A stretch of DNA of 64,000 nucleotides, from IMG/VR virus record IMGVR_UViG_3300025120_000019; one strand, 5' to 3'. A model generated the notes under the pieces. That model was not told where the DNA came from. It did no database searches and was given only the letters and a program-made list of their open reading frames with translations. Origin of the DNA: a virus. Below, one piece after another: positions 4,979-60,951 of the stretch (position 1 is its first letter; each line of letters begins with the position of its first letter). Made by a program: the position numbers and the translations under genes.

Positions 4979-5192
4979 CGCTAACTAACTTTACATCCTT
5001 ACCAGGTCCAACTTTGCTTGGAAGATCACCATATTGTTCAATGTACCATTCTATTACTGCTTTGTACCACAACTGACTATTATGATGTGCTTTTTTATTA
5101 AACATATGTATGTTATTATTTGTTGCTTGCATAGTGCTTAATGCCCTTGCACTTTCTTTCTGCAAATCTCTAAGATTTAAATCATCAAGCAT
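4971..5192 (-). CDS. Small hypothetical protein (73 aa)
   Basis: Tightly packed between its neighbours (1-bp gap upstream, 8-bp overlap downstream). Confidence 0.75.
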   Translation of the reverse strand: MLDDLNLRDLQKESARALSTMQATNNNIHMFNKKAHHNSQLWYKAVIEWYIEQYGDLPSKVGPGKDVKLVSDV

Positions 5193-5193
5193 T

Positions 5194-23276: not shown

Positions 23277-23282
23277 TATTTA
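23277..23282 (-). promoter_or_regulatory. Late promoter box overlapping the stop codon of the giant gene
   Basis: GATAAATAC on the minus strand; its TAA is the stop of 23280..37049. Confidence 0.5.
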
Positions 23283-26200: not shown

Positions 26201-29200
26201 ATTTTACAGAAATTACAGCATTTTTTGAAGGTGCTGTTGTAAAAGTTATTTGTCCATAATATTTTTCATAAGTTGCTGTGGTATCTAAAATATTTGATAC
26301 AACATAATCACTGCTTAGTTGTTCTACACTATTAACAGTTATTTCTATATCTGCAGGCTTGACACTCATAGGCCATTTTACATTAAATAAAATTTGTGAA
26401 CCTGTTCCAGTAAACGATGTAGTAACATTCAAGTCAGTAACTTGGTATGTTCCTGATACACGGTCAAACCGTATTATCATATGCGTTGACCGTACTGGAG
26501 AATTTCCTAATATTGCAACTGCTTTTGAATCTGTACTAGCAACACCGTAAGCATCCTGATCTTTCTTTGTTCCTGAAAAAGTAATTGTTGGAGAAGTGAT
26601 ATATTTTTTTCCTGCTCCATTAAAAATTATACCAGTAACTTTGTCTCCTGAAATAGTTGCTGTGCCAGTAGCAGTTGGTCCACCACCGCCACTTACTGTT
26701 ACAGTCGGTGATGATTCCCATCCGGACCCTCCTTGTGTTATTTTGATATCAGTAACTTCAAAACCAACATTATCAAACCAATTACGTTGTGGATACGTAG
26801 TTACAAATGATGAATAATTTTTTATTTCACTATTAATAACTTGTGCGTTTTCAGGTATAATTTTTCCTTGTACTTCATCATACCTAGGAGGTAAATCAAA
26901 ATCACTAATAACTGTTTGAGTGGGTTCAATTTTTTCGTAAGAACTTAAATATTCTCTAATTTTTGTACTGTAAGGTTTGACTTCGTTTACATACTCAGTA
27001 TAACTTTCTAAATTGTCATTTTTAAATGTAACTTTTTGTTGTAGTTCTCCTACATTATGTTTTGCTTTAATGAAAGCCGTTTTGAAAATCCAATCTACAT
27101 TTAATTGCTCAGATAATATGTAACGAACACTACTAAAAAATAATTTATTCCATTCTACTAATAGAGTATCAACAAAAATATTATCTTTAATTGTATTAAG
27201 TAATATTCTTATTTCCTGTCCGGCATCTCTATCATACAAAGCACTATCGTAAACAGCTTTATCAAAACCAAACTTTGAATTGTTATATAATAAAGAACTT
27301 AATTCTAATGTCCCGTTTTGTCTTCCAATAGTTTGATAGTTTACTGTGTAATCAACTTCAGGTTGATTATCTATTTTATACAATAATAACCAGCCGCCTG
27401 AACCTATTGATTCAACTTTTACAATATCGCCTAATTGGTCTTTGAGTCCTCCTAAAGCATAACTACCTGGTACCAAATAATCAATAGCAGTATTTTCACT
27501 ATATCCTGATTTATACCAATCTTTATAATTCCAATATAATCCAGCATCATATCCTTGATTGTTTACCCTAACCCATGCTTTATCTGTAGTATTCCAAATG
27601 TAGGTTGCCCAAAATCCTAATAAAGTAGAATCAGCTTTTACTAATGCTGTAAAAGGCCTCACTGTTACAACTGTTGATTGCGAATAGTTTTTTCCTTGGT
27701 TAACTACTACAGCTTCAATAACTTGACCTAAATTATTTACATATGTTTCAATTTCGGCACCAGTTCCTGTTCCTTGTATTGTAACTTTAGGTCCTCTACG
27801 CTTTGTATCATTTGCACTATTAAATGCTGGATCAATATATCCTCTTCCTGCACTGGTTATATTAACGTCAGTAACTCTGCCATCTGTGATAGTTATTCCT
27901 AGTGTTGCTTGACTAATCTTAGATGTACCAATAAATCTTAACAAAGATTCGGTATCAATACTAGTATCATAATCTCTAGATACTGCTGACGGTACTGGGT
28001 CTTTTTTAGATAATCCTGATATATTATATTCGTCTACAATTAAATTACCAGCTAATACAAGATTTATTCTTTCAATAATCTGTTTTAAAGCTTCTGCTCT
28101 ATTGACAAACATAGTTTGTAACGGTTCATCTAAAATACCATATCTTCTAGCACTACTTACACCTGGATCTGGTACAGGAGTTTTATTTTCGTCATATCCT
28201 ACTAAGCTATCGATCCATTTTTTAATTAATGTATTGCTAGGTTGACTTGTTTCAAGCCCTTCGGTTAATAAATCATATTCTCTATGTAAATTATTTTCTT
28301 TAACTTCTACTGTGTTATAATATTCAAAATGTAGAATTGTATCTTTGTCTCTAATTAAACTTCTACAATTATAAATTCCAAAATTATCAGTACCAAACAT
28401 TGCTAAAAACTTATAACCATTGCTTGCTGGATCTTCAATTAAAGATGCAACCGAAGAAGCAGTTATATTTCTATTTGCAAGAGGTGGTAATACTTTTGTA
28501 TTTTTTACCCAATAATAATATTTGGCTGAAAATTGTCCTGTTATTGCATCATATATATTTTGCCTAGTATAACGTAAATTACCGTAACGTGATTTTCCAC
28601 TTATTCCTTGAGATAGTCCTTCAGTAGTATCTGCGATATCATCCCATTGCTCAGGAAGGAGTTTACTTTCAACCCACTCATAAATGTCAACACTATATCC
28701 AGGAATAACTTTATTCCACACATTGGCACTGTATTCAGAATTTTTTTGATAAGGATTATACCATTTTACTGCACTTAGGTCCCATAAAAGTTTTCCAACC
28801 TTTTCGTCACCCCAAGGATTTACAGTACCAGTATTTGTACTTCCTATATTATATACTGCTGGATCATAATATAGTTTAAAGTCTAATTCTCTTTCTGCGG
28901 CATTAGCTATTTTACCTTGAATAGGATCAATAAAATCTAAATATGTGATTAAATCACTTGTAACTTTATCATATATAAAGGATCCACGCATTTTATCATA
29001 ATTTGTAAAGTCTGTAGCAGATGCTAAAGTTGTCCAATTTACTGTATCTCTATCTGCTCTCAAATCAAATAGTAATCCATTTCTAGTATTACTTGTTTGT
29101 AATCCTATAAATCCAAGATACAAATGATTATTAGTGTAAACTAATTCTACATCAACGGCAGTTGATAGATCTCTTGTAATTGTATTACCAAAGTCATCTG

Positions 29201-32200
29201 TGGCGTAACTTTCGTAGTTAACAACCTCGCTAACTGTATATCTATCATTGAGTAACTCAAAAGTATATGCTTGTGGCCTTCTGTTAGATATATTTGTTAA
29301 GGTAGTGGTTTTATTATCAAATACTGTTGCACTATTATCAAATGTTGTTGCATCAATATTTTTTCCGTTTATTCCAATGACACATAGTTTATTTCCTGCA
29401 AAATCAACTTTATATCCAAATCTTTCATTTACTGAACTATTTGGTGCTACTAATAATTGTGTATTTTCAAATGCAAGTGTAGTAGTATTATATTTGTAAA
29501 TAAAAACAACACCTTGATCAATTCCTGTTTCGCTACTATCTGCAACATCTGCAAGATTAGCTCCAACTGCAATATAATTTCCATCATCACTTAATGCTAA
29601 ACTGTCACCCCACAACATATCTACTTGAGGTGTAGTTAAAATTTCGTAAAATGCGTATCTGCCTTCTTGCTTGCGGTAGACATATACTTGGAATTCTTGA
29701 CTTGTATTATTATATGCTGTAAATGCTAACACTTCTCCATTAGAACTGACATCTATATTTTTTCCAGCATCTATTGTATTATTAAATGCTGTGCTATCAG
29801 TATCTCCGTCAAGAATACCTGCTGAATATGGTAGATAGCCAAATCTGTCAATTCCTATATCTGTTGTTTTCCAAGCATTTCCATCTGTAGGATCAGCACC
29901 ACCTGGTACTATATTAACTTTAGCTTTATACAATACCCCGTCATAGAAAACAATTTCATTTATCCTATAAGAATAAATTGTATTATACTCACCTCTGTAT
30001 TCAGAGTCTTGTGTGCCTTTAAATTCTTTGTTCAAATAGATTGTATCATATATGTATATACGACCATTGTTTCCTTCGCTACGGACAAATACCTGATACT
30101 TTTCATCAGTACTAAACGCAGTTTCTAATCCTATACCAAATTTTTCGTCAGCTGTAGGATTAGATGAAATAAACTGTTCTAACAGTACAAAAGTTGCATC
30201 TAATTGTTTTTGATAAACATATACTATACCTTGATTGCTAAGAGATGATGCTGATCCATCAGCATCTGCTGGAATTTTATAAATTTGTTCCCAGTCTTGA
30301 CTATCTGTATGTATTGTGCTACTATCATCATCAGTTTCTCTTAATGATTTCCATAAATTACCTCTGTCACTAACAATATCATCTTTAAAAATTTGACCAG
30401 TTACACTTCCGATTTCTCCTCTATATCTTGTTTTAACAAGACTTGCCAAAGGCGCAGATATAAACAAAAATTGTCCATCGTGTGCAAACTTAATTTTTTG
30501 TCCAAATCCACTAGACGAACCATGAAATCCTGCTGGTAATTCTATAGTTTGTACAGCACTTAATTGAGAACTTTCACTTGCTCTATTAAATATAAAAACT
30601 TTTTCATCCTCTGGACGACCTACTGCAACAATAGAATTTGCATCGTTACTATCAAAGCTTGATGCAAATTTACCATCGCCTTCTAGTTGATTTGTAATTT
30701 CTTGTTTTCCTGTTACAATTTTTTTATTGCGAAACACGCCAAATTTATTGTTTGCTACATTATCAATCCATATTGTATCATTTTCTCGTAATCCATATTC
30801 GTTAATATCTGCATTTACAAGCTCAGGAGTATTGTATCGTTTTGATAATAATTTTGTTATTATACCTGTAGTGCTATCGCCTAAATCTAAACTTTGATCT
30901 GCTGTAGTAATATCTGCTATAACATTGACAACATTTTCTGTAATTGTATTGACTGTGTAAAATCCATCTAATGACGGTTCAACAAATTGCACTCCAAAAG
31001 TTTCTCCTACTGCGATTTCTGGCGTGCTATCAAAAGTTAAATCAAATCCAGTATCTGTCTTTGTGTAAAGTAAGACTCTGTTTGATGTTTTTACGTGCTG
31101 ATATATATTCCATGAATTCTTTTCAGATGTTACCCATAAAAAATTATCAATTGGAACATTTGTAATATCAAGAGAAAGAATATCAGCTGGTGTTTTAACA
31201 AGAAAATTTACCTGATCTAAACTAACATAACCCGCAGTCTTAGAATATTCTTTTGTACTCCATGTGCTAGGAAACGGTTTTGTAGTGTAATTATTTGGTT
31301 TTATATAAACATTAGGTGTAGTATATTGATAAACTAAATCAGTCCTTGATTCATTTTTGGTATTGACTAATTCAATAATCTGTGGCTCTATTCTAAATTC
31401 TTTCTCATCTAATTGATATTCTAATTCATCAAATACATTAGTAGCACCGTATTGTGCTTTTCTAATTGCCCATTCTTCATAAAATTCTATGCTATCTTTA
31501 TTTGCACTACCTAATTTGTCAAATAATTTTGTTAAACTATTTAGAGTACCTTTATCTTTAATAAATCCTTGGTAAAACTTATATTGACTTATTTCATCTG
31601 GAATTATATTATTAAGATATTCTCTTTTTTGATAACCAATTAAATGCTGTGCTAACCTTTGTTGTTCTGTGTCAAAGTTATCAGTATCTAAATCATAAAA
31701 GTCTGCAAATTGATTAGCTTTGTAATCAAAGTTTGTTTTTAATCCGCTTTCTGGTTTAGAATCTAATCTATTCCAATTTGTAGCATTAAATGTATTTGTT
31801 CCAATTAAAAACCCATTTGCTGAATAGTAATATTCTTTATATTTTACTATATCTCCCAATCCATAATCTTGCCATTGTTGCCATTCATTAATTATAGCCT
31901 CATCATATATAAATCCAGGAATATCTAAATTACCATTCCAATTATTTGTTCTATAACCAACAACATTAATACGTTCTTGCCTATATCCACTTGCTGGATT
32001 GTATATTGTATCATTAAACACAGTTGAATTATCAAGAATTACTGCATGATCTTTTTGCACTAATCCTAATTTTGCAAAATACAGACCCTGATCATCTTTT
32101 GGAAATAATTCTACACTATTAGAAACGTCTCTGTTTATATTTAAAGACACATCTTTAATTGCAGTGCCTGCTACGTTTAATGTTTTATAACCAAATATAT

Positions 32201-35200
32201 TTTCTTTTACACTATCAATAACAAAATATTCTTTACCAAATTTTAATCTATTAGCTCCAGGACTTAAAGTAATAACAGACCCTACCGCCCAATTTTGTGT
32301 AGTGTAAAACAAGAATTCTTTGATACCAAGATTAAAGTTTTCTACAGCTTCAGTATCTCGATTAAAATAATCAAACTCAAATCCTAAACTATTAAGTTTC
32401 TTTTCATATCCTTGTAAAAAGTCTACTAAGATTTGTGTAGTTTTTATAATTGTTCCGTATTCTAGTCTTGATACAGTTTCATTAAAGTTTTTTCGTATAG
32501 AGGCAGTTGCGCCTCCTATTATCGGAAGATCGGTTAGTCTACTATAAAATTTTTCTTCAAAATCATCGCCAGCTGTATGGTTTTGATTTACTCTGAAAAA
32601 ATTATTTTGAAATTTTACAATTTTACCAGATACATATTGTTTACCTTCTGTCCAAAATAAGAAGTTTTCACTCAACCCTCCAACTGTAATAGCAGGGTCA
32701 CTTTGTGCAGAAATAGGAGCATTATATTCAAACACAGGATTTTCTTTATCGTATCCACTTACCTTATAACCTTTTTCAACCCTTTCAATTATTACGCCAC
32801 TATATGAAACTGTTGTTAACGGAGAACTTTGTATTAAATTAATTTTATAATTTTCAAAAGGTACAAATACATTTCCTTTATTTGTAGGTGTTCTACTATC
32901 TAAGACTAATTTAAGTTTACTCTTATCTGCAAAACCTCCTAACTTGAAAGCAACCTTTTGTTTAAGGCCAGATAGTTTTTCAACAAAATTATTATATTGT
33001 GTTTTCACATCAGTAGACATATAGCTGTGAATATAATTTACAAATCCACAAGTAAGTATTTTATTACCAGTAGAATCTACAGTATCTGTAAATTTTAAAT
33101 TAGATAATTTTATTCTTTGTGAATTATCTCCTACATATACTAATTGTCCTGTAATATCTCTTTTAATTCTACTTCTATCAAACCCTACGCCAACAACTTG
33201 TGCAGGCTTATTAATCATAATAGCTTTTAAAATAGCAAACGGGTATTCACTACTACGTCTCCATGCAGTTTCTGTTGGTGTATGATCACCAAATCCAAAA
33301 TTTTCTCCTGACTGCACTCTAAAACTAAAATCATTTATATATCCACTATCTAGAGGACTACTTACCTTTCCGGCATGATCTACAGGTATATGTTTTGTTA
33401 AATTAGGACGTATAAATCTTTTATCTGTGATAACCTTTGTATTTGACGAACGTATAATACCTTTTTCAATATCTTCCCACATTACTAAATTATCTTTTGT
33501 GTAAGGTGCAGGACCATAATTTGTTTCCCACCAAGAAGGTTTAATTGATAAGCCAAGCATTTCCCAAGGATGTGTGTTTGGTCGGTCGGTGTCATACGCA
33601 TCTGTGTATATGCCTCGCCAAAAACCACTAAGCGAACGTTCTGTATCACTAGATGCAAATTTATAATTATAAGTAAATGGTTTAGTCTCAGTTACAAAAC
33701 TATTACTAGTATAATCTACATTTCCTGCTTTCCTTGTCCAACTTAAAAAATCCGAAATAGTAATATCATTTATATCTTGCCTACTAATTTTTGTATTTCT
33801 GAATTCACCACCGATATAATCAAAAATGTTGAAAATTTCTGGATCATAATTAACTTTTATATTATTGAAAAACCTTTTTTCTAATTCTAAAAGCAATTGA
33901 TCTCTATAATCATCATATCCAACTATTATACTTCCGTCATGTCCTCTAACCACAGTTTGTGAAGTTTCGTAAGTAGTATCAACAAATATTTCTGGCTGAT
34001 ATGCTGGAAACATTCCTAACACTGTAGGTGTTTGTGGAATATAACTGCCGTTTGTTGTTTCATATTCATAAATGTCAACTTTATCATCTACATTCAATGT
34101 AAAAGATGTTAAGAACTGCACAAATCCTTCACTTGTAAATTGATAATCTATACTGTTATATACTTGTACATCATTTACATATACATAAACAGCTTTTTCA
34201 CTAAGATTTGTTAATGTAAAAGGCATTGTTAATGCATAATATTTTAAATCTGAATCTAGTACAGTATGCTCAATTTTTTTAAAGGCACCAATACCTATCA
34301 TATCTGAATTAAAAAAAGGCATAGTAGACTTTTTATCTTTAGCAAGATGTAAAAGTATTTGGTCAACTTGTTCACGAACACTACCAGAAAGTTCTAATGT
34401 TTCGCTTGCTTGTATAAAAGCTCTTTTATATTTGCTATACTCATCTTTGGCAAAATTTATAGCAGATACTAGGTTATTTTCTTTGTTAGATATAGCAAAT
34501 AATGGAAGATTTATAGGTCCACTATGTTGTAAAAATTTCCTACCATATTTTTTAATATCGCCTAAGTCACGTATATTATTAGCACCTGGCTGATTACCAG
34601 CAAATCCCTGTAATTCAGGAACAATACTATCTAAATGATCATTTACTTCGCCAAGTGTAAATTCTTTTATATCTTCGTTTAATGGATTTCTTTCAAAATT
34701 ATGCGGAAACTCATAATGTCCATTAATATTTTTATCTGCTGTATTTGTATGAGTTTTTGTAACAATAATATCACTAGGAAGCAAATTATTATAAAATTTT
34801 ATAACTTTTTCATTATTTCTGTTAACCTCAAATGTATAATCTACATTTTCTAACTTTAGCGTATTGTTTACATATACTACAGTTTTTAAGTCAGTAATTA
34901 AACCACTTTTACTATAAACATCAATGATAAAATTATTTGTTTGGGTATCTCCTGTATATTTTCTTATGACATATTGTTTACTTAAATCCGGTGATTTGAC
35001 CCAACCGTTAGTATAATCAAATAATGTTCCTTCTGCATTATATTTTTTCAAATATCCAGTATTAGTTGTTTTATCAATAACTGCATTGCTTATTTCATAA
35101 CTAAATTTTTCTGTTAATAATCCAAAACTAAAAACAATATCACCTGTATTGTTAATATTCTTATAACTTAAAGGAAATCCAAGTTCAGGGTCGGATGCTC

Positions 35201-37049
35201 CTTCACCTACTTTATAATTAAATATTCTGTTACCAGCAAAGTCACTATTAGGATACACAACTTCATCTGAAAAACTTATTCCGTTTTCGTCAAACATATC
35301 AAATAATGGCGCTTGATTCACTCCAGTTTTATCTTGTCCTTTTGTCCACACTGAACCATTATACCAATACGTACATCCTGCATTTTTTGTACCTTGTGTA
35401 ACTAATATTACTTCATTATCCAAAGGCATTGTATCTGTTGTTTCAACTAATGTAATTTGACTATTGCCATTGTATATAATAAATTTTACTTGAAATACTT
35501 TACCATATACCATAGTATCAGTATCATTTAAGAATACTACTCTCATACCATCTGCAAGTTCAACACTATCAATACTGTATCCAGGTTGTCCTTCTATTTT
35601 TGATCTTACATCATTTGTATATTCGTCAATTAAATCAATATTATCTTTTGCCTTAGTTCCATTATTAAATAACTTTAAACCTCTATCAAATTCAATAATC
35701 GGACGCTTACCTCTAGATGATTCATTTAGATCAAAAGATTGATTGTTTAATTCAGCACTTTTAGTAATTACATCTTTGTGAAACCACCTGTTGTATCTTG
35801 CCCATGGATTTCTATCTCCGCTTGATTTATTGGCAACAATATAGTCTTTTGTTCCTGCATAACTTTTTGCATCACTAAAAGGAACTCTATCAAATCCATT
35901 TACATCAAACGGTACTTTAACATCTGAAGTAAAAGTTGAAGGAACTTGTAGGTCGTTTGCACTAACAAGTTTAATTTCATCTCCAACTCCTTCTACATAC
36001 CAAGAACCAACTGCATATTTTGCAGGAATAACGCTCCCTGAAAAATATATTTTCATTCCGTTTGAAAGATCCCAACCATCACTTGTTTTGTATGTTTTTT
36101 TGCCTAAAATTTCATTATCAATATCTATACTTGTATTTTCTTCTATATCATAAATTTTTAGTCTAGAACTAATATTTAAATCATATTGACTTATAAAATA
36201 TAAAGTATTAGGAGCATTTGCAGGAATAGTAAATTCTAGTATTCCTGATTCTATATAACCAGTGTTTACAAAACTGGATTGATTTAATAATGTATCATCT
36301 GAATTAGGTGTAAGTGTTACTCCTTCAGTATACAGTTGATTGATTACTGTACTATCATCTAATCTTTCGTTAGGATCTGCTCCTCTATATAAAGCAACCG
36401 ATAACGGATTTCCAGGAGAAGTTATGTCAAACCTATAAGTTTGTCCTCTATATAATCTTAAGTCAGGATTTTTTGTTAATCCATTTGGATGGAATAATAA
36501 AGATATAGCATTTGCTTCTTCGATAGTTTCAAGACGGTAAGTGCTTACAACCTGATTAGTTTGTCCTCTTACAGCTACGTCCTGTGGACCATCCGGTAAC
36601 CAGTAGTATTCTCTAAAATTACAAAATTTACATAAGTCTATGCTTGGGTTCCAAGAGTAAAATTCTTGCTCATTTGTTTTACTATGATTTTTTACATTTG
36701 CATTGTATGTTTTTAACAAACCTGTATAGTCATTATAATCAGAATAATATCTTGTGTTACCAATAAAATCTTCATATAAACTTACTGGTTCAAATTGATA
36801 ATCTTGACGCTCTTTAGAAACGTCTTCTAGGTAATTGTCATCTAACGTGACAGCTTTTGCTTCACGCTTTCCAACATATCCATTTACTTTTTCAATTACA
36901 CCTGGATTGGTAAACTGGTCCAAAGTACTTGATAAAAATTTCTTATTTTGTGGGGTCCTAAAATATCTAGGAAGTTGATCAACACTAGTTCTTCTTGTTT
37001 TTCCACCAGCTGGTAATGGTGCTTCGCTTTGATTATCATCGTATGACAT
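23280..37049 (-). CDS. Giant (4589 aa) baseplate wedge/receptor-binding structural protein, gp7-like position
   Basis: Follows the gp6-like gene; N-terminal LPRYFRT..NKKFL..TLDQF; beta-propeller-like and carbohydrate-binding-like repeats. Confidence 0.75.
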   Translation of the reverse strand: MSYDDNQSEAPLPAGGKTRRTSVDQLPRYFRTPQNKKFLSSTLDQFTNPGVIEKVNGYVGKREAKAVTLDDNYLEDVSKERQDYQFEPVSLYEDFIGNTRYYSDYNDYTGLLKTYNANVKNHSKTNEQEFYSWNPSIDLCKFCNFREYYWLPDGPQDVAVRGQTNQVVSTYRLETIEEANAISLLFHPNGLTKNPDLRLYRGQTYRFDITSPGNPLSVALYRGADPNERLDDSTVINQLYTEGVTLTPNSDDTLLNQSSFVNTGYIESGILEFTIPANAPNTLYFISQYDLNISSRLKIYDIEENTSIDIDNEILGKKTYKTSDGWDLSNGMKIYFSGSVIPAKYAVGSWYVEGVGDEIKLVSANDLQVPSTFTSDVKVPFDVNGFDRVPFSDAKSYAGTKDYIVANKSSGDRNPWARYNRWFHKDVITKSAELNNQSFDLNESSRGKRPIIEFDRGLKLFNNGTKAKDNIDLIDEYTNDVRSKIEGQPGYSIDSVELADGMRVVFLNDTDTMVYGKVFQVKFIIYNGNSQITLVETTDTMPLDNEVILVTQGTKNAGCTYWYNGSVWTKGQDKTGVNQAPLFDMFDENGISFSDEVVYPNSDFAGNRIFNYKVGEGASDPELGFPLSYKNINNTGDIVFSFGLLTEKFSYEISNAVIDKTTNTGYLKKYNAEGTLFDYTNGWVKSPDLSKQYVIRKYTGDTQTNNFIIDVYSKSGLITDLKTVVYVNNTLKLENVDYTFEVNRNNEKVIKFYNNLLPSDIIVTKTHTNTADKNINGHYEFPHNFERNPLNEDIKEFTLGEVNDHLDSIVPELQGFAGNQPGANNIRDLGDIKKYGRKFLQHSGPINLPLFAISNKENNLVSAINFAKDEYSKYKRAFIQASETLELSGSVREQVDQILLHLAKDKKSTMPFFNSDMIGIGAFKKIEHTVLDSDLKYYALTMPFTLTNLSEKAVYVYVNDVQVYNSIDYQFTSEGFVQFLTSFTLNVDDKVDIYEYETTNGSYIPQTPTVLGMFPAYQPEIFVDTTYETSQTVVRGHDGSIIVGYDDYRDQLLLELEKRFFNNIKVNYDPEIFNIFDYIGGEFRNTKISRQDINDITISDFLSWTRKAGNVDYTSNSFVTETKPFTYNYKFASSDTERSLSGFWRGIYTDAYDTDRPNTHPWEMLGLSIKPSWWETNYGPAPYTKDNLVMWEDIEKGIIRSSNTKVITDKRFIRPNLTKHIPVDHAGKVSSPLDSGYINDFSFRVQSGENFGFGDHTPTETAWRRSSEYPFAILKAIMINKPAQVVGVGFDRSRIKRDITGQLVYVGDNSQRIKLSNLKFTDTVDSTGNKILTCGFVNYIHSYMSTDVKTQYNNFVEKLSGLKQKVAFKLGGFADKSKLKLVLDSRTPTNKGNVFVPFENYKINLIQSSPLTTVSYSGVIIERVEKGYKVSGYDKENPVFEYNAPISAQSDPAITVGGLSENFLFWTEGKQYVSGKIVKFQNNFFRVNQNHTAGDDFEEKFYSRLTDLPIIGGATASIRKNFNETVSRLEYGTIIKTTQILVDFLQGYEKKLNSLGFEFDYFNRDTEAVENFNLGIKEFLFYTTQNWAVGSVITLSPGANRLKFGKEYFVIDSVKENIFGYKTLNVAGTAIKDVSLNINRDVSNSVELFPKDDQGLYFAKLGLVQKDHAVILDNSTVFNDTIYNPASGYRQERINVVGYRTNNWNGNLDIPGFIYDEAIINEWQQWQDYGLGDIVKYKEYYYSANGFLIGTNTFNATNWNRLDSKPESGLKTNFDYKANQFADFYDLDTDNFDTEQQRLAQHLIGYQKREYLNNIIPDEISQYKFYQGFIKDKGTLNSLTKLFDKLGSANKDSIEFYEEWAIRKAQYGATNVFDELEYQLDEKEFRIEPQIIELVNTKNESRTDLVYQYTTPNVYIKPNNYTTKPFPSTWSTKEYSKTAGYVSLDQVNFLVKTPADILSLDITNVPIDNFLWVTSEKNSWNIYQHVKTSNRVLLYTKTDTGFDLTFDSTPEIAVGETFGVQFVEPSLDGFYTVNTITENVVNVIADITTADQSLDLGDSTTGIITKLLSKRYNTPELVNADINEYGLRENDTIWIDNVANNKFGVFRNKKIVTGKQEITNQLEGDGKFASSFDSNDANSIVAVGRPEDEKVFIFNRASESSQLSAVQTIELPAGFHGSSSGFGQKIKFAHDGQFLFISAPLASLVKTRYRGEIGSVTGQIFKDDIVSDRGNLWKSLRETDDDSSTIHTDSQDWEQIYKIPADADGSASSLSNQGIVYVYQKQLDATFVLLEQFISSNPTADEKFGIGLETAFSTDEKYQVFVRSEGNNGRIYIYDTIYLNKEFKGTQDSEYRGEYNTIYSYRINEIVFYDGVLYKAKVNIVPGGADPTDGNAWKTTDIGIDRFGYLPYSAGILDGDTDSTAFNNTIDAGKNIDVSSNGEVLAFTAYNNTSQEFQVYVYRKQEGRYAFYEILTTPQVDMLWGDSLALSDDGNYIAVGANLADVADSSETGIDQGVVFIYKYNTTTLAFENTQLLVAPNSSVNERFGYKVDFAGNKLCVIGINGKNIDATTFDNSATVFDNKTTTLTNISNRRPQAYTFELLNDRYTVSEVVNYESYATDDFGNTITRDLSTAVDVELVYTNNHLYLGFIGLQTSNTRNGLLFDLRADRDTVNWTTLASATDFTNYDKMRGSFIYDKVTSDLITYLDFIDPIQGKIANAAERELDFKLYYDPAVYNIGSTNTGTVNPWGDEKVGKLLWDLSAVKWYNPYQKNSEYSANVWNKVIPGYSVDIYEWVESKLLPEQWDDIADTTEGLSQGISGKSRYGNLRYTRQNIYDAITGQFSAKYYYWVKNTKVLPPLANRNITASSVASLIEDPASNGYKFLAMFGTDNFGIYNCRSLIRDKDTILHFEYYNTVEVKENNLHREYDLLTEGLETSQPSNTLIKKWIDSLVGYDENKTPVPDPGVSSARRYGILDEPLQTMFVNRAEALKQIIERINLVLAGNLIVDEYNISGLSKKDPVPSAVSRDYDTSIDTESLLRFIGTSKISQATLGITITDGRVTDVNITSAGRGYIDPAFNSANDTKRRGPKVTIQGTGTGAEIETYVNNLGQVIEAVVVNQGKNYSQSTVVTVRPFTALVKADSTLLGFWATYIWNTTDKAWVRVNNQGYDAGLYWNYKDWYKSGYSENTAIDYLVPGSYALGGLKDQLGDIVKVESIGSGGWLLLYKIDNQPEVDYTVNYQTIGRQNGTLELSSLLYNNSKFGFDKAVYDSALYDRDAGQEIRILLNTIKDNIFVDTLLVEWNKLFFSSVRYILSEQLNVDWIFKTAFIKAKHNVGELQQKVTFKNDNLESYTEYVNEVKPYSTKIREYLSSYEKIEPTQTVISDFDLPPRYDEVQGKIIPENAQVINSEIKNYSSFVTTYPQRNWFDNVGFEVTDIKITQGGSGWESSPTVTVSGGGGPTATGTATISGDKVTGIIFNGAGKKYITSPTITFSGTKKDQDAYGVASTDSKAVAILGNSPVRSTHMIIRFDRVSGTYQVTDLNVTTSFTGTGSQILFNVKWPMSVKPADIEITVNSVEQLSSDYVVSNILDTTATYEKYYGQITFTTAPSKNAVISVKYKKDIEYLNAEDRINFFYSPTTGQYGKDLAQLMDGVDYGGVQIDTVSFGANIGFNRGKFGTDAFDDFDANFEDEVFILDGSTANITVSKPFEPGITYNIYYKSITAGVNENPTRLDDPDWVGDSSTFSNPDAIMRSIVGDGITDSFALDVTGINTTDGDTIIVRKSTSDGAVTPTGVTFDTQLTGGDLTNIAGKFSTATGIASGNIVVDGDGFVTPTTSKGPEENVPGQILDTLDIQVYERVNDGQGMITVQNFTTDGTGAEYPLEELPANQDSVIVKLDNIVLSPSQYEIDYIEKILRISDSSLLPVGIHLSVMTIGTNGTNILDSDTFTADGVSKNFITYYQYVSGLTAVVAVNGVVTTNFIISVSGSEYGEDADKVMITLGDTPKANSIITYTLYTGTGQQYSQLAIDTTFSRFVSTNKSHTFGANGAVPLPFNKKPYSHNVLVKKGNTFLDAGYSILHTITQERVYELDNWQFVDQTLIMQSDVLVYINDQYVNPKNYVYDTINGRLSLTSRSVGVAGDKMRVILIDKADYFFVDTKVTLSNAATLVDYEPLDSINFTLNDSTNVVCTIQEFTKVGSDVTILLQGYERDLVLLAEKDDTPTLYFDDSTAFKIDSVTVVESNRLSLKEIPNEDVTIYVFSNHDINEFERLSYRVSYDGTNAPEGSADYLTKNLVSQGHIPLNKEIPGANYAWVFLNGKFLTSQVDYTLSEDGKTVLLSEAPLKNDQIEILYSCATVSKKKFAYRIFKDILNRYHYKRITSAKEYELQSNINWYDLNIVLKDATGLDEPNRESSLPGIIFINGERIEYFAKNNNVLSQLQRGTLGTGVPEVHLTTARVYNQGGSETIPYQDTTYTQTFTGDNSSSTFVLNWTPANINQFDVFVAGSRLIKSSYSLYNSTLDQDSPGGDETISADFSVQNNILTLKTTPGEGVEIKVIRKEGKVWNDKGKSISDSKNTISKFLTDGSIKLTR

Positions 37050-51804: not shown

Positions 51805-52239
51805 ATGAGTTGGTTATATAAAGGAAAACAAGTTAAAGAAATTTCAGATGTATATGAAGGATTTGTTTACTTAATAACAAACTTAAAAGATAACCGTAAG
51901 TATGTAGGCAAGAAACTAGCAAAATTTAAAACAACCAAGCCACCATTAAAAGGCAAAAAAAACAAACGCAGAGGTCATAAAGAAAGTGACTGGCGTGAAT
52001 ACTGGGGAAGTTCAGACAGACTGAACGAAGATGTAAAAAACTTAGGCCAAAAAAACTTTACTCGAGAAATACTTTATTTTTGTAAGTCTCGCGGTGAAAT
52101 GTCATACTTAGAGGCAAGAGAACAATTTGAAAGACGTGTACTGGAAACAGATGAATACTATAATGGTATTATCAATGTAAGAGTAGGCGGTTCAAACATA
52201 CTTAGAGAAAATTTAAAGGCACATCAGGACACTGTTTAA
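51805..52239 (+). CDS. Single-domain GIY-YIG (Seg-like) endonuclease
   Basis: GFVYLITN...KYVGKK, YWGSS, FTREIL, YLEAREQ, YYN. Confidence 0.85.
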   Translation: MSWLYKGKQVKEISDVYEGFVYLITNLKDNRKYVGKKLAKFKTTKPPLKGKKNKRRGHKESDWREYWGSSDRLNEDVKNLGQKNFTREILYFCKSRGEMSYLEAREQFERRVLETDEYYNGIINVRVGGSNILRENLKAHQDTV

Positions 52240-52619: not shown

Positions 52620-53960
52620 ATGAAAATAATACAGATTATAAACGAAGAAGTACCAAAAGGAACTGTCGTAGAAATAGACGGTAACAAGTTCACATGGCTT
52701 GGAGCTCAGTGGAAAAATGTTGCAACAAACAAGCTTGCAAGTAAAGCTGATAATAAAAAAATAAATGCTCTTCCTTCAGTAAAAGAATTAAAAGTATCTA
52801 ATAAAGTAGGAAACTTATCAATAGATAATAAAACTGTTTCATCACAAATGGTTGGCAAAGACAAGTTTGTTGTTACTTTTCAAGAAACAGAAAATGGAAA
52901 AAAAGTAAATCGTTCTGTTAGATTCAAAGATCCTAAATTAGCGGCAGGTGTTGCAAAGTCAATCAGAGAAGGTATGACTTTTAAGCAAGCATCAAAAGTT
53001 TTACCTAAAGATAGTTATAAAATATTAAACGTTGGTAAACTAATGACTAGCTTTAACATTGGTAGGTCAATGTCTAAGAGTCAAATAGATGCTTACATTG
53101 ACAAAGTAAAGGCAAAAGGAGCTAATGCACCTGGTGCCCAGAGATTCTTAAAAATAGTTAATGGCAAAATGTGGCAAGCTCTTGGAAGGTTCGGAGGGTT
53201 TGCTGGATTTCAATACTTACTTTATCAAACATTTGTTATTAACTATGATCAGGTGTTAACAGCTCCAGAAGACAGTTTTGAAAGTCCTGAAGGTAGACAA
53301 GAATTACTAGATGTAATTACTGGATTATATTCAACTCAAGTTATTCTTGGTATTGTTGCAATTTTAAGATCTGCTAAATTAACAAAATCATTTATAAACT
53401 TACTAAGAGCTCCAATAAGGGCATTTCAGGCAGGCGCATTGGTAACAGGAGCCGGAACAGTACCTGCTATTATTACAGCTATAGTTACTGAAGGTGCTTT
53501 TTTTGTTGCACTTTATGCCCTTTCAAATCCAACTGTACAAATGGAACTTGCCAAATATATTGCAAGCACAAGTGGAGGTGTCTTTTTTATAGGAGGCATA
53601 GGAAATTTAGCAAACAGTTCTATGCAAGTCCTTGATAGTTTAACAAACGGAGCCTTAGGTGGTGAAAGTTTACGAGATGCTATTGGTTTCAAAAAAGGCG
53701 TTACTAAGATGCCATCAGGAACTGCTTGGGCTTCTAGTGAATGGGCAAAACTTGCATTCCAAGATATGATTTTTCCTCCAGACATGGAAAAAATAAAAGT
53801 ACCCTATCTGTCTCCTGAGCGAAGAAGAAATGCAATATTTATTGCACTAGAAATGAAAGCACCTACTAGTACTACTACTAATCAACCTGCTCCAGGCCCT
53901 GGAGATCCTTCTGTACCTGGACTACCAACTAATCCAGATGCTCCGGCTGTACCACAGTAG
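52620..53960 (+). CDS. Hypothetical late protein with hydrophobic segments (possible internal/ejection protein)
   Basis: 446 aa; basic N-half, several hydrophobic helices, Pro-rich tail. Confidence 0.7.
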   Translation: MKIIQIINEEVPKGTVVEIDGNKFTWLGAQWKNVATNKLASKADNKKINALPSVKELKVSNKVGNLSIDNKTVSSQMVGKDKFVVTFQETENGKKVNRSVRFKDPKLAAGVAKSIREGMTFKQASKVLPKDSYKILNVGKLMTSFNIGRSMSKSQIDAYIDKVKAKGANAPGAQRFLKIVNGKMWQALGRFGGFAGFQYLLYQTFVINYDQVLTAPEDSFESPEGRQELLDVITGLYSTQVILGIVAILRSAKLTKSFINLLRAPIRAFQAGALVTGAGTVPAIITAIVTEGAFFVALYALSNPTVQMELAKYIASTSGGVFFIGGIGNLANSSMQVLDSLTNGALGGESLRDAIGFKKGVTKMPSGTAWASSEWAKLAFQDMIFPPDMEKIKVPYLSPERRRNAIFIALEMKAPTSTTTNQPAPGPGDPSVPGLPTNPDAPAVPQ

Positions 53961-53961
53961 T

Positions 53962-54159
53962 TTATAATAATGGCATTTTAGAATTTTTAGTATTTTCTAT
54001 ATTATCTTTAATAATCTTTGATATAACATCCTGATCCATAACATCAGTGTTGTACAGTAATGTATCAACAGAGAGTCCTCCTCTCATGTACCAACTGAGT
54101 CTATAGACAGTATCTTTTATTTTTTTAATATCTTCTTCAAACTCTTCGGCTAATAACAT
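53962..54159 (-). CDS. Small gp51-like/tail-chaperone extension ORF, probably reached by -1 frameshift
   Basis: LSWYMRGGLS motif; no clear SD; frame is open back to the slippery site in the upstream gene. Confidence 0.65.
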   Translation of the reverse strand: MLLAEEFEEDIKKIKDTVYRLSWYMRGGLSVDTLLYNTDVMDQDVISKIIKDNIENTKNSKMPLL

Positions 54160-54182
54160 TACTTCACTGTCATTAAGTTGTA

Positions 54183-55022
54183 TTAGCCTTTGGCGAAAAA
54201 ATCCGTTTGATCAACTGTTATCCTTAGTTGATTCTCTTTTCCGCAAGCGGCACAAACAACATTTTCAACTGGCAATAACCAAGCTTCGTATTGTGCATTA
54301 ATATGATCTTTAATAGCTTGATACATTTTAACATCATAGTTTTCTATAAAGTCAAAAATTGCTTTTATATCAGTTTCTGTTTCACCTTCGATATCAATAC
54401 TTTTTAATGAAAGTAAAATAGTTTTTAAATTTAGTTGTGCAATTTCTCTTAAAATTTTATCACGAAATTTATCTCTTTCGCTTTCTTCTACAATAGAAGG
54501 TAGTTGTATTGACATTGCACGTTGATATCCAACTGATTCTTTTTGTAAATCGGTATATTGTTGATATGTTAACGGTGATACATTAATTTTAAAATCTTGA
54601 TACATTAAGCTATCTTCAAACGTAAGTCCATTTAGATGATTAATATATTTTTGCAACTCAACTTCATACGTGTTTTCTTCTCCGCAATGTATACATTTTT
54701 GCGAAACTGACATAGTGCTACCATAAGTTGCCATTCTGATTGCTAATAGTATAGCATCAACATCTATTGATACTAGATCAAACGGCTTTAGAATAGATGG
54801 TATGCAACTTTGCATATTTGAAGCTGTTGCTTGACCGTTGATTAGAGCATCTGGTGTTTTGTAAAGAATCTCATCATTAGCAGTCATACTAAACACAGCC
54901 AAGTTAGTATAAGAATCTTCATAAAGAATACCAGGAGACTTATAATACTTTCCTTTGCTTGGTAAGTCTATATAAATCTTTGGTTGCCTTTGAAACTTCT
55001 TTAATGGGCTTTCATTTTCCAT
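54183..55022 (-). CDS. Baseplate hub assembly protein/tail chaperone, gp26-like
   Basis: IDLPSKGKYY, MTANDE, DVDAILLAIRMATYG, CIHCG and CAACG zinc pairs, C-terminal DFF. Confidence 0.8.
   Translation of the reverse strand: MENESPLKKFQRQPKIYIDLPSKGKYYKSPGILYEDSYTNLAVFSMTANDEILYKTPDALINGQATASNMQSCIPSILKPFDLVSIDVDAILLAIRMATYGSTMSVSQKCIHCGEENTYEVELQKYINHLNGLTFEDSLMYQDFKINVSPLTYQQYTDLQKESVGYQRAMSIQLPSIVEESERDKFRDKILREIAQLNLKTILLSLKSIDIEGETETDIKAIFDFIENYDVKMYQAIKDHINAQYEAWLLPVENVVCAACGKENQLRITVDQTDFFAKG
54195..54201 (-). other. Candidate -1 ribosomal frameshift heptamer T TTT TTC
   Basis: GAT TTT TTC GCC AAA GGC TAA; the -1 frame reads TTT CGC CAA AGG CTA ... GTA ATG into 53962..54159. Confidence 0.65.
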
Positions 55023-55087: not shown

Positions 55088-57226
55088 TTGGCGGCGTTAG
55101 ATGATTTAGTTTCTACCTCAGGTGCTGTAAACCTATTTGGTTCAGAACTTAAAGGCGCTACTAATTCTGTAGTAGGATTAGCTGGTAATTTACTTTCTGG
55201 CAGTATGAAGCTGTCTGATTACAGTAAATCTCTTGATACAAATACCAAATTATTAGGCAAACTTGGAAAAGTTGTAAATGCATTAACAATGTTTGCTGAA
55301 CAAAGTTTATCAGAATATCAAAGTTTAACCGGTATTGGTGCAAGCTTTGGCAAACAGATGACTGAAATTAAAATTGCCGCGGCAGAACTTGGTATGAGTG
55401 TAGAAGACATGACCAAGCTGTTTAAAGACAATGCAGAAGGACTTAGTGCTTTTGGGGGCAGTACAGATTCGGCTATTAGTGCATTTAGACAATTTAGTAG
55501 TAGTGTATTGTCCAGTGACGTAGGAACAGGGTTACGTAGACTAGGATACACCGTTTCTGATATAAATGAAAATTTACTAACATATGCAGAAATTGCAGAA
55601 CAAGATAATCAATTAGAGCGTAGTGTTGGTAGAGACAGAAATCAATCTGCACTTGAATTTGCTAAAGAATTAGACTCATTAAGTAAGCTTACTGGCAAAC
55701 AAAGAGACGAACTTGCTGACCAGATGAAAGAAGCAAGACGTCAAGGAGATGTACAAGCATTCCTTACAGGACAAAGTGCTGATGCAAGTGAAGCACTTAC
55801 TACAGGACTTACAAAAATAAGTTCAACAATGGGTCCTCAGTATGCAGAATTGTTTAAAGATTTATTGATACGAGGAGCACCAACAACTGATGCAACTAGA
55901 AGTGCTTTTGTTGCACTAGGAGATAGTGCAGATGAATTTCAAGCACAGGTCGATTCATTTAGATCCGGCATGAATACAGATAATTTTAGTCAGTTTGATC
56001 AATCTATATCAGAAACACAAGCGGCTTTTACAAGATATTTGAATACTGAGGAAGGTAGACAAATAGGTATGTTAGGTGGGTTAACAGACATAAGTCAAGC
56101 ACAAGGGCAACTACGTGAAGACTCTTATGTATTTGCCAATAGACTAAATGCGGCAGGCGATGCGGCTGAAGATACACTTGTAAAGTTACAGAGAATTACA
56201 ACTGAAATAGAAAGACAACAAGAAATCCAAATGGGTCAAGAAGATCCAAGGAATCTCATAGATGAAACTATTAGGTTAAACGAAACAACACGTGAGATGG
56301 TTTTAGCAACACAACAAAAAGCTTTAACAAACTTAGAAGAAATGGGTGTAACGGCATTACAAAAAGTTCAAGATGCAATGCCTAGTGTTGGCGAGATTAC
56401 AAACAAAATAGGCGGTGTAGTTGATAATTTATTTGAAGCCGCTGGAAGAGCTGATAAATTATGGAACAGCGGCAATGGTATGATAGATTTTCCAAATCTT
56501 GCCACAATGCCCGTTGAAAATTTAACGGTAAACGAAACTTCTGGTGGAAAGATTGCTACCTTAGAAAAGCAAGAAGAAGCGGCAACTATGGTATCAAAAG
56601 CAACTGATGCACAAGATATTGCTTTCACAAAAGTTGAAGATGCAACTAACAAATTAGCTGATCTACAAGCAACTGCCGCACAAATGACAACAGACGGCTT
56701 TACCAAACAGGATCCACAGTTTGCTGGTATTCAATCTGACATAGAAAGAGTTAGAGGTGATTTAGCAAAAGCAAAAAGTGAACTACTACAAAAGCAAGCA
56801 GACTTGTATACTGCACAAAGAATAAGAGATGGACGTAGAACAGGTAATTATACACGAGGATTTGCCACAGGAGGTAATATTCCAGGCGGAAAATTTGGAG
56901 TTGTTGGTGAAGCTGGTCCAGAGTTTGTATCAGGTCCTGCTAATGTAATGAGTTCAAGGTCGAGTATGGGTGTGGTAAACAACATGATGAGAACTATTAG
57001 AAACGTAGAAAACCGTGTTCAAGAAGGTGGGTCTAATGGTCAAAATTCGATAAGTAGTAATATAACTGATAGTATGGTTAGTATGCTAGAAGGTAAACTA
57101 AATGAACAAAACATGATATTACAAAATTTATTACAAGTTGAAACTACTGCATCAGAAACAGGCAAACGCCAATACAAAGCAACTAGAGGGCTAAGTGGTA
57201 ATATGCTAAAAGGAATAGGCGCATGA
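55088..57226 (+). CDS. Tape-measure-like tail protein (gp29-like)
   Basis: AGGAG SD with TTG start; long helical Ala/Gln/Glu-rich; GFATGGNIPGGKFGVVGEAGPEFV motif of tape-measure C-termini. Confidence 0.7.
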   Translation: MAALDDLVSTSGAVNLFGSELKGATNSVVGLAGNLLSGSMKLSDYSKSLDTNTKLLGKLGKVVNALTMFAEQSLSEYQSLTGIGASFGKQMTEIKIAAAELGMSVEDMTKLFKDNAEGLSAFGGSTDSAISAFRQFSSSVLSSDVGTGLRRLGYTVSDINENLLTYAEIAEQDNQLERSVGRDRNQSALEFAKELDSLSKLTGKQRDELADQMKEARRQGDVQAFLTGQSADASEALTTGLTKISSTMGPQYAELFKDLLIRGAPTTDATRSAFVALGDSADEFQAQVDSFRSGMNTDNFSQFDQSISETQAAFTRYLNTEEGRQIGMLGGLTDISQAQGQLREDSYVFANRLNAAGDAAEDTLVKLQRITTEIERQQEIQMGQEDPRNLIDETIRLNETTREMVLATQQKALTNLEEMGVTALQKVQDAMPSVGEITNKIGGVVDNLFEAAGRADKLWNSGNGMIDFPNLATMPVENLTVNETSGGKIATLEKQEEAATMVSKATDAQDIAFTKVEDATNKLADLQATAAQMTTDGFTKQDPQFAGIQSDIERVRGDLAKAKSELLQKQADLYTAQRIRDGRRTGNYTRGFATGGNIPGGKFGVVGEAGPEFVSGPANVMSSRSSMGVVNNMMRTIRNVENRVQEGGSNGQNSISSNITDSMVSMLEGKLNEQNMILQNLLQVETTASETGKRQYKATRGLSGNMLKGIGA

Positions 57227-59848: not shown

Positions 59849-59895
59849 AATACGGTGTTTTGACCCCATTTTAAGCGTATATTTCCCAAAAGGTG

Positions 59896-59901
59896 TAAAT
59901 A
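59896..59901 (+). promoter_or_regulatory. Late promoter box for the head operon
   Basis: GTAAATA upstream of AAGGAG SD and ATG 59944. Confidence 0.55.
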
Positions 59902-59943
59902 TAGTAGACAGCCTTGTAGAATTTAATTGAAAAGGAGAATAAC

Positions 59944-60951
59944 ATGACTGAGCGTAATAAATTTGAAGAAATGCTTGAGCATTTAGTCAATGAAGACAAA
60001 ACAAAAGCAGAAGAGCTTTTCCACGAAATCGTGGTAGAAAAATCAAGAGATATATATGAAAATCTACTATCTGAAGAAGATGACGAAGTAGATGAAACTA
60101 CTGATGAAGAAGTAGATGAAACTACTGATGAAGAAGTTGATGAAGCATCTGAAGATGATTTAGACGAAGCTACTGATGAAGAAGTTGATGAAGCAACTGA
60201 TGACGAAGAAGTTGATGAAGCAACTGATGACGAAAAAGTAGATGAATTTATGGAGCCAACTATAGAAGCTGACCCTGTAGACGATATGCAAATGGATATT
60301 GAGATGCCAGACGCTGGTGACGACATGGAAATGGGCATGGACGGAGACGACATGGGTATGGACGCAGAAGGCGGAGAAGGCGACATTGAAGATCGTGTAA
60401 TGGACCTAGAAGACGAGCTAGAGTCATTGAAGCAAGAATTTGAAGCAATGATGGATGGCGACATGGGTGACGAAGAAGCACCAGCTGATGATGAAGGTGA
60501 CATGGGCGACGAAATGCCAATGGACATGGATTCAGAAGAAGGTGACGATGACGAAGCTGAAGAAGCATTTGCATATGAAGCAACTGATGAAGAAGTTGAC
60601 GAAGCAAATGACGAAGAAGTAGAAGAGTCAAAAGTTGCCAAGTCACACACAGAAGTGATGCGTGAATATACTGATAAAGTATCAGCATCAATGGGTGACA
60701 ACGGTGCAAATGCAAAATCAGTAGTTGCTGGTTCAAATAACATGGGCGGAACATCTGCAAATATTGCAAAAGGTGGATCAGCTGATGAAAAAGGCACTGG
60801 TGCAACTGCTCCAAAACAAGATTCAGCAGGTAATGTAAACGTACCTGGTGGTAAGGCTTCAAAATCAATGAAGTCACAACCTGGACACGGCGCTGAAAAG
60901 AAGTCGAAGCCAGAGAACGCTGACAATAAAAAATCAACTATTGGAAGCTAA
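59944..60951 (+). CDS. Highly acidic prohead core/scaffold-like protein
   Basis: Strong SD; AEELFHEIVVEKSRDIYE N-terminus; D/E-rich repeats; lies before the protease. Confidence 0.75.
   Translation: MTERNKFEEMLEHLVNEDKTKAEELFHEIVVEKSRDIYENLLSEEDDEVDETTDEEVDETTDEEVDEASEDDLDEATDEEVDEATDDEEVDEATDDEKVDEFMEPTIEADPVDDMQMDIEMPDAGDDMEMGMDGDDMGMDAEGGEGDIEDRVMDLEDELESLKQEFEAMMDGDMGDEEAPADDEGDMGDEMPMDMDSEEGDDDEAEEAFAYEATDEEVDEANDEEVEESKVAKSHTEVMREYTDKVSASMGDNGANAKSVVAGSNNMGGTSANIAKGGSADEKGTGATAPKQDSAGNVNVPGGKASKSMKSQPGHGAEKKSKPENADNKKSTIGS
60082..60246 (+). repeat. Imperfect 24-27-bp tandem repeat encoding (E)EVDE(A/T)TD(D)
   Basis: gaagtagatgaaactactgatgaa-type units, about 7 copies; further copies near 60575-60625. 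Confidence 0.85.

Follow-up and report, generated by a model that had tools for sequence, protein, structure and literature searches.

In a 64,000-nt stretch of DNA from an uncultured marine giant phage related to T4 (IMG/VR record IMGVR_UViG_3300025120_000019; hereafter the window), a gp26-like gene on the minus strand is followed by a small open reading frame (ORF) in the -1 frame (locus 53962-55022). Comparison with related loci makes it rather probable that the gp26-like gene is a recoding cassette, in which a -1 slip near the 3' end leads to a pair of products of 279 and 353 amino acids (aa) that match T4 gp26 and gp51 and would serve as tail or hub chaperones. Judged from sequence, hairpin-stimulated ribosomal -1 frameshifting is the likeliest mechanism.

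The zero-frame gene (54183-55022, minus strand) encodes the predicted short form of 279 aa, which belongs to the T4 gp26/gp51 family and has a C-terminal FF motif and two CxxC pairs. The 3' end of the gene reads ...ACG GAT TTT TTC GCC AAA GGC TAA, with the TAA stop at 54185-54183. The slippery heptamer T TTT TTC (54195-54201, minus strand) is of the X XXY YYZ type, lies in the phase xxT TTT TTC five codons before the zero-frame stop and spans the final base of the D274 codon together with the codons of F275 and F276. A TGA three codons 5' of the first TTT closes the -1 frame, which then runs as FFRQRLIQLNDSEV-MLLAEE... through the small ORF to a stop at 53964-53962 (minus strand). Counted from the first TTT, this -1 extension (53962-54201, minus strand) has 79 codons, contains the motifs FFRQRL, SWYMRGG, KDNIENTK and MPLL and would form the C-terminal domain of a long form of 274 + 79 = 353 aa, with the predicted junction peptide ...ITVDQTDFFR followed by LIQLNDSEVMLLAEEFEEDIK. 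A gene caller would mark an ORF of only 65 aa here (53962-54159, minus strand), with an ATG at 54159-54157 located 21 nt 3' of the gp26-like stop. The heptamer, the upstream TGA, the continuation into the 65-aa ORF and products of 279 and about 353 aa had been proposed in a first-pass annotation made from the letters alone, and all of them, including every coordinate, agree with the sequence.

The heptamer alone does not exceed chance, since the window has a G+C content of 33% and contains 44 copies of TTTTTTC as well as nine in-phase T TTT TTY sites within ORFs of at least 100 aa. Among these nine sites, only the one at 54201-54195 has a -1 frame that outlasts the zero-frame stop, by 73 codons. 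The signal for recoding is comparative conservation, and this comparative evidence is strong.

Conservation of the slip site

We compared 109 distinct related loci from IMG/VR contigs and from RaK2, PA5oct, Atu_ph07, XacN1 and other phages. The initial set consisted of the window and 16 further loci, 11 of them from named phages. A second set was retrieved with the motifs [SC]WYMRGG and K-I-I-K-D-N-I-E of the extension protein, independently of the slip site; this search found more than 526 IMG/VR loci, 80 of which were analysed. A later scan added 21 loci. The mixed alignment A1 was too diverse to serve as query in a search for related loci, and such a search with protein P0109 returned none.

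The heptamer was TTTTTTC at 104 of the 109 loci, TTTTTTT at four and TTTTTTA at one, the last being probably a longer T-run indexed one base off. In all 109 cases the wobble base before the TTT codon was a T, although this codon encodes eight different amino acids (N, D, S, H, A, G, R and V). The T-run was found at the same place and in the same phase even across loci whose gp26-like proteins drop to 22-29% identity. Within the initial set it lies on the two Phe codons that end the PF12322 domain; the -1 frame opens 0-9 codons upstream and encodes a related domain of 73-80 aa. All 80 loci retrieved by the extension motifs showed a match starting exactly at TTTTTTC with a gp26-sized zero-frame ORF upstream, a zero-frame stop 10-43 nt after the start of the heptamer and a -1 frame opening 0-25 codons upstream, and the 21 loci of the later scan had the same arrangement. 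Among 75 distinct junctions, which align without gaps, the seven bases of the heptamer are invariant at a mean column identity of 63%. A sequencing error or a pseudogene was also considered as the origin of the two-frame structure and was rejected, because the arrangement recurs in 109 distinct loci.

Conservation of the T-run and of the -1 phase had been suggested as a check on the proposed frameshift, and both are preserved. Non-slippery codons were seen in naturally fused homologues and in T4 gp26 (see below); the 109 loci displayed neither such codons nor another relative frame. Every comparative test that was run, covering slip site, phase, overlap, start codons, codon periodicity, hairpin and fusions, supports a frameshift by which the gp26-like ORF would be read on into the small ORF.

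A predicted hairpin downstream of the heptamer

A predicted stimulatory hairpin (54148-54188, minus strand; arms GGCUAAU... and ...AUUAGCC) starts 6 nt after the heptamer, within the 5-9 nt spacing of a canonical -1 frameshift cassette, and has a folding energy of -11.6 kcal/mol. The zero-frame stop lies within its 5' arm, and the AUG of the small ORF sits atop the 3' arm. The 62 nt 3' of the heptamer were folded for 86 loci and yielded a mean z-score, relative to dinucleotide shuffles, of -2.17 compared to -0.14 in 252 control windows from the same genes (Mann-Whitney p 7e-20). Across loci, structures most commonly start 6 nt after the heptamer. In the clade of the window (alignment A5), an 11-bp stem of the form GGCUAAnnnn.../...nnnnUUAGCC pairs in 88% of cells and shows two-sided changes in six of the 11 pairs; none of 500 shuffles matched this, and slid controls paired in at most 42%. 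Folding indicated unrelated hairpins at the same spacing in Atu_ph07, XacN1, Xoo-sp13, RsoM2USA, PA5oct and A4.

Coding selection in the -1 frame

All 75 relatives keep the -1 frame open, and the other two frames are stopped in 72-73 of them. Between the zero-frame stop and the position of the window's ATG, the entropy at the three codon positions of the -1 frame is 1.43/0.98/1.76, which closely resembles the 1.38/0.94/1.81 of the undisputed coding part downstream of this ATG. This matching pattern, together with the open frame, suggests that the stretch back to the heptamer is translated. Homologues of the 65-aa ORF occur in Tara and other metagenome sources.

Relation to T4 gp26 and gp51, natural fusions and paralogue counts

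The 279-aa protein matches PF12322 (T4_baseplate) with 35.5 bits (gathering cut-off 24.5); the match covers residues 56-276 of the protein and positions 37-218 of the profile, which has 219. It also matches phrog_150 with an E-value of 7.5e-12. Alignments A1 and A7 show conservation of C110, C113, C257, C260 and F275/F276. The closest cultured relatives of the protein are jumbo myoviruses at 23-30% identity, namely Atu_ph07, Phosso, PA5oct, RaK2, XacN1, RsoM2USA, SCTP-2 and the Asteriusvirus and Eneladusvirus groups; closer uncultured relatives in IMG/VR reach 53-92%.

The 65-aa ORF has no match in Pfam or PHROGs, and the extension alone gave nothing meaningful against these two databases; the RaK2 extension matches phrog_18291, a family without functional annotation. 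The description of the small ORF as gp51-like is borne out by profile comparison. T4 gp51 (249 aa) consists of PF12322 over residues 1-201 and about 48 further residues. A profile of 106 extensions aligned to a profile of 11 gp51 tails with an hhalign P of 1.4e-5 over 35 columns, and a profile of the fusion proteins described below was collinear with full-length gp51 to the C-terminus (E 2.9e-4). For S-PM2, HTVC008M and KVP40, the similarity of extension and gp51 tail is far clearer (probability 97%, E 2e-11), and the extensions of the window clade match those of these three phages in the same register (P 1e-3). In all three, the sole gp26 gene ends in xxT TTT TT(C/T) and is followed by a -1 extension named 'gp51 baseplate hub assembly catalyst' in GenBank; the KVP40 record notes that it is 'similar to ... 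the C-terminus of T4 ... gp51'. T4 gp26 (208 aa) ends in ...CPECGK...EFFELL* with the non-slippery codons GAG TTC TTT, and gene 25 follows directly.

A search with the extension profile against 1.84 billion representative proteins found 419 relatives. Among the best 150 profile matches, 18 were single-ORF fusions of 319-351 aa with the extension at the C-terminus. These fusion proteins are members of PF12322/phrog_150 and have the junction xFRxxLI with a single Phe; at the two loci for which the junction DNA was inspected it reads CAA TTT AGA, with no T-run. When one fusion was used in a tblastn search, Phosso, Atu_ph07 and Xoo-sp13 were matched in two pieces in two frames. In an AlphaFold2 (AF2) model of a natural fusion (mean predicted local distance difference test, pLDDT, 91; predicted template modelling score, pTM, 0.87), the extension is a helical hairpin packed onto the body as one fold. 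A wide VIA fold search with this model returned a best Z of 5.5, with generic helix-loop-helix matches to the extension. When longer proteins carrying the extension were sought, only P0043 was found (215 aa, on an ENA contig of 1260 bp), which has an N-terminal PF00701 dihydrodipicolinate-synthase domain and 61 C-terminal residues matching the extension, and is most likely an assembly chimera.

On one IMG/VR contig (L100), a fusion gene (6001-7017) lies directly behind a PF12322 gene that has no extension (4989-5999), and this pair of a short-type and a long-type gene adjoins a tape-measure-like gene homologous to that of the window. Two PF12322 matches are thus present on this fused-form contig, as in T4 (gp26 and gp51). 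The complete genomes of RaK2, Atu_ph07, PA5oct, S-PM2, HTVC008M and KVP40 contain one match each, and all of them carry the T-run. Within the 64 kb of the window, no second PF12322 ORF was found. The pattern is that a single gene goes with a slip site and a pair of short and long genes with none. Contig L100 also has ORFs of 116 and 320 aa (3639-4861, minus strand) between the tape-measure-like gene and the PF12322 paralogues, which by eye resemble an IS200/IS605-type pair with a TnpB-like protein.

Proposed mechanism and alternative explanations

According to the mechanism that we favour, most ribosomes would pass the heptamer and terminate at the TAA five codons on, which gives the 279-aa short form. 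The hairpin 6 nt downstream would make a minority pause on T TTT TTC; the two Phe-tRNAs would then each re-pair one base back (UUU/UUC to UUU/UUU), and translation would resume in the -1 frame for 77 more codons to give the 353-aa long form. The latter would combine the N-terminal body of the short form with a helical C-terminal domain. As the -1 slip would join the two frames, the 65-aa ORF would be the end of the long form and not a separate gene. The short form would correspond to T4 gp26 and the long form to T4 gp51, the products of two paralogous genes in T4 and in a few other lineages. The analogy to lambda G/GT, and the way in which T4-like tail assembly chaperones have been read in print, make it probable that the pair acts during tail initiation as a chaperone of the neighbouring tape-measure-like protein and of the hub, without being part of the finished virion.

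The main rival to ribosomal frameshifting is transcriptional slippage, in which RNA polymerase would add one U on the T-run so that, in some mRNAs, one continuous frame would specify the long form. The site is indeed a homopolymeric run, which extends to T7-T9 in XacN1, CM1, Xoo-sp13, RsoM2USA and HTVC008M. Yet 104 of the 109 loci hold exactly T6 followed by C, and T6 is short for efficient polymerase slippage; the heptamer fits X XXY YYZ, so that both tRNAs can re-pair; and the conserved hairpin lies 6 nt downstream, in the geometry that stimulates ribosomal -1 frameshifting, whereas hairpins that promote polymerase slippage lie upstream. We therefore infer a ribosomal slip and regard transcriptional slippage as quite improbable. 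Still less credible is that the locus contains two independent genes, with the small ORF initiating by itself, perhaps through coupling or re-initiation behind the gp26 stop, to produce a free 'gp51-like' protein of 5-9 kDa. The position of the window's ATG 21 nt after the stop would suit this, as would the separate small coding sequences (CDSs) in public records (S-PM2p208, KVP40.0327, I899_gp022, XacN1 ORF316, A4_1 and Phosso 319). However, only 6 of 75 relatives carry an ATG where the window has its start, and in 46 of the 75 the first 24 codons of the -1 frame include no ATG at all. The starts chosen by gene callers or annotators vary by phage and yield 41, 59, 65 or 71-73 aa, and in the RaK2, PA5oct and RsoM2USA records no CDS is called over the extension at all. 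The window's ATG sits inside the hairpin, coding selection in the -1 frame reaches upstream of it to the heptamer, in-frame fusions occur, and T4 gp51 bears its tail covalently; the invariant wobble T and the T-run would be left without explanation. Most likely, the 65-aa ORF does not initiate on its own.

Another alternative accepts the frameshift and differs in function: the products might belong to the hub as structural subunits, or help to assemble another of its components. Older T4 genetics suggested a place in the hub for gp26 (PMC3004832), the tape-measure-like gene of the window is divergent instead of downstream, and neither sequence nor fold searches revealed a resemblance to tail assembly chaperones of the lambda type, all of which would fit this proposal. 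The same review lists T4 gp26 and gp51 as hub assembly chaperones and states that gp51 is absent from the particle (PMC3004832). In addition, the arrangement in KVP40 and HTVC008M, with tail tube, gp26, extension and tape measure in succession, parallels lambda V-G-T-H, and Vladimirov et al. (2022), as described in papers that cite them, identified these genes as tail assembly chaperones. On balance, a non-chaperone function appears unlikely, though less so than either alternative to the ribosomal slip. In the record of Acinetobacter phage Octan (MT409116; locus L154 789-2256), gp26 and gp51 alike bear the name 'tape measure protein assembly chaperone', which indicates that some annotators have already adopted the chaperone reading.

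Several observations weigh against a chaperone-encoding frameshift cassette in the window. The window's own hairpin is modest, with a z-score of -1.4 to -2.2 depending on the stretch folded, and the conservation of the hairpin arms partly reflects protein constraint, because both arms are also coding. Between the window-clade extension and the gp51 tail, homology has moderate support, with an hhalign probability of 80% (21% versus bridging sequences). The 279-aa protein matched no Pfam family besides PF12322 at E <=0.01, a Foldseek search of the fusion model against the PDB gave nothing at E <=0.001, and no sequence or fold link to the classical tail assembly chaperone families was found. The tape-measure identity of the putative client is inferred (see below), and Vladimirov et al. 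may argue for another route in some of these phages, as far as the citing papers convey their work.

Genomic neighbourhood

The divergent gene next to the cassette (55088-57226, plus strand) encodes a 712-aa protein that is probably the tape measure protein (TMP) and thereby the putative client of the chaperone pair, as suggested by the annotation of its homologues, its size and its position. The divergent neighbour in L100 is a homologue (E 2e-20), and there is weak collinearity with RaK2 ORF088, whose annotation reads 'similar to tail tape measure'; in pEa47 the corresponding protein is listed as a putative TMP. The assignment is indirect, since the 712-aa protein has no Pfam match and BLASTP against T4 gp29 showed no similarity. 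The first-pass annotation had placed the pair next to a tape-measure-like gene; the adjacency holds, with the qualification that this gene is divergent and a putative TMP gene. A complex prediction for the 712-aa protein (alignment of 4 rows) and the short form (38 rows) scored 0.00, which has no bearing on binding either way.

Beyond the 712-aa gene lies a T4-type portal gene (gp20), and further on come the genes of the prohead protease and of the major capsid protein. The opposite flank of the cassette carries genes for gp46/gp47-like nuclease subunits, a late sigma factor and baseplate proteins (gp5-, gp6- and gp25-like). PHROGs scans of the window's larger ORFs revealed no tail tube gene. 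KVP40 and HTVC008M have a tail tube gene, followed in turn by gp26, the extension, a hypothetical gene and the tape measure gene.

Other features of the window include a 446-aa ORF without Pfam or PHROG match (52620-53960, plus strand), which converges on the frameshift gene; the stops of this ORF and of the -1 extension are 2 nt apart, which leaves no room for a terminator between them. Between it and the gp46-like nuclease gene lies a gene for a 144-aa SegE-type GIY-YIG homing endonuclease (51805-52239, plus strand; PF19835, 3.5e-34), probably a mobile insertion. A single ORF of 4589 aa (23280-37049, minus strand) is located in the baseplate/fibre module, directly downstream of a 1186-aa gp6-like wedge gene (phrog_10646). 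Between the portal and protease genes, ORFs of 351 aa (59871-60926, minus strand) and 335 aa (59944-60951, plus strand) overlap almost completely on opposite strands, and the 335-aa plus-strand ORF has no PHROG match.

Previous work, annotation and implications

Direct literature searches on this frameshift turned up no report. A study by Vladimirov, Gautam and Davidson on the TAC-N and TAC-NC genes of T4-like phages (Virology 2022;566:9-15, doi 10.1016/j.virol.2021.11.003) surfaced via the reference list of the PRFect paper (PMC10885494), and what follows on it is limited to the statements of two papers that cite it (PMC10885494, PMC12846349). The PRFect paper reports from it that some T4-like phages have a short gene and a long fusion gene and do not use frameshifting, and the paper on phage Adele (PMC12846349) cites it for poly-T slippery sequences in T4-like TAC-N genes. 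Because it is cited in this way, the core idea, with gp26 as TAC-N, gp51 as TAC-NC and a poly-T slip in relatives, appears to have been published already, which weakens the novelty that the first-pass annotation had implied. The locus in the window is a well-supported new example and not a new principle. Possible additions are the clades of jumbo phages, the covariation in the hairpin, a second lineage with two genes and the unannotated recoding; the published work may not have covered the first three of these. As the core idea seems to be published, the added value would lie in breadth, hairpin and annotation.

None of the frameshifting records whose annotation was retrieved has the recoding annotated. 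In the six frameshifting records whose annotation was inspected, and in several more of jumbo phages, the long form is missing, its tail figures as a 'hypothetical protein' or 'gp51' of its own, or no annotation covers the region. In RaK2 (L003 3362-3725), PA5oct (L002 3344-3566) and RsoM2USA (L013 after 1583), the extension is located in stretches annotated as intergenic, and the long form is therefore absent from these records. At the level of annotation, hundreds of phage genomes are affected.

It may be speculated, as a serious possibility that falls somewhat short of an even chance, that a single gene with a hairpin-stimulated -1 frameshift is the ancestral and by far the commonest state in the T4 superfamily, including giants of the RaK2/PA5oct/Atu_ph07/XacN1 type and uncultured marine and freshwater lineages, and that the two-gene state arose at least twice independently (in T-even phages and in the L100 lineage) by duplication and loss of the slip site. 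T4-like phages and giant myoviruses appear to share the rule of long-tailed phages, with two chaperones, one short and one long, at a fixed ratio, and the long-puzzling genes 26 and 51 of T4 would be its resolved two-gene version. The frameshifting, fused and duplicated natural variants offer a comparison set for the question of why the ratio of the forms matters.

Comparison with known systems

A -1 frameshift is reportedly conserved in those genes of long-tailed phages that encode tail assembly chaperones, as Xu, Hendrix and Duda are said to have described in 2004, and in P2 the E/E+E' gene slips on TTTTTTG. The cassette in the window resembles lambda gpG/gpGT in having two predicted products with a common N-terminus, a predicted -1 slip at an X XXY YYZ heptamer close to the 3' end and a position beside the tape-measure-like gene; the gene order of KVP40 and HTVC008M mirrors lambda V-G-T-H. 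It differs in that its body comprises 279 aa with a zinc-ribbon-like Cys4 arrangement, compared to about 140 aa in gpG, without detectable kinship in sequence or fold, and in that the gene is transcribed divergently from the TMP-like gene. The lambda G/GT-style pair proposed in the first-pass annotation thus fits in logic and synteny; a family link was not found, and chaperone activity and binding to the tape measure are suggested by analogy.

With T4 gp26 and gp51, the predicted products share the PF12322 body, the two CxxC pairs and the C-terminal (F)F motif. Both systems have a short form and a long form with an additional helical tail at the C-terminus, and in both the genes adjoin the tape-measure and hub genes. 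T4 has two separate, divergently transcribed paralogues, whereas the window phage has one gene with a slip site, and the extension of the latter is about 30 residues longer than the gp51 tail, has motifs of its own (SWYMRGG) and aligns moderately. The closest parallel in arrangement is offered by S-PM2p208, I899_gp022 (HTVC008M) and KVP40.0327, each a small -1-frame ORF directly after gp26 in a phage with one PF12322 gene and a slip run at the FF codons. These small ORFs are annotated as independent genes in public records. Their extensions of 59-65 aa are plainly similar to the gp51 tail, whereas those of the window clade, with 79 aa, are more diverged.

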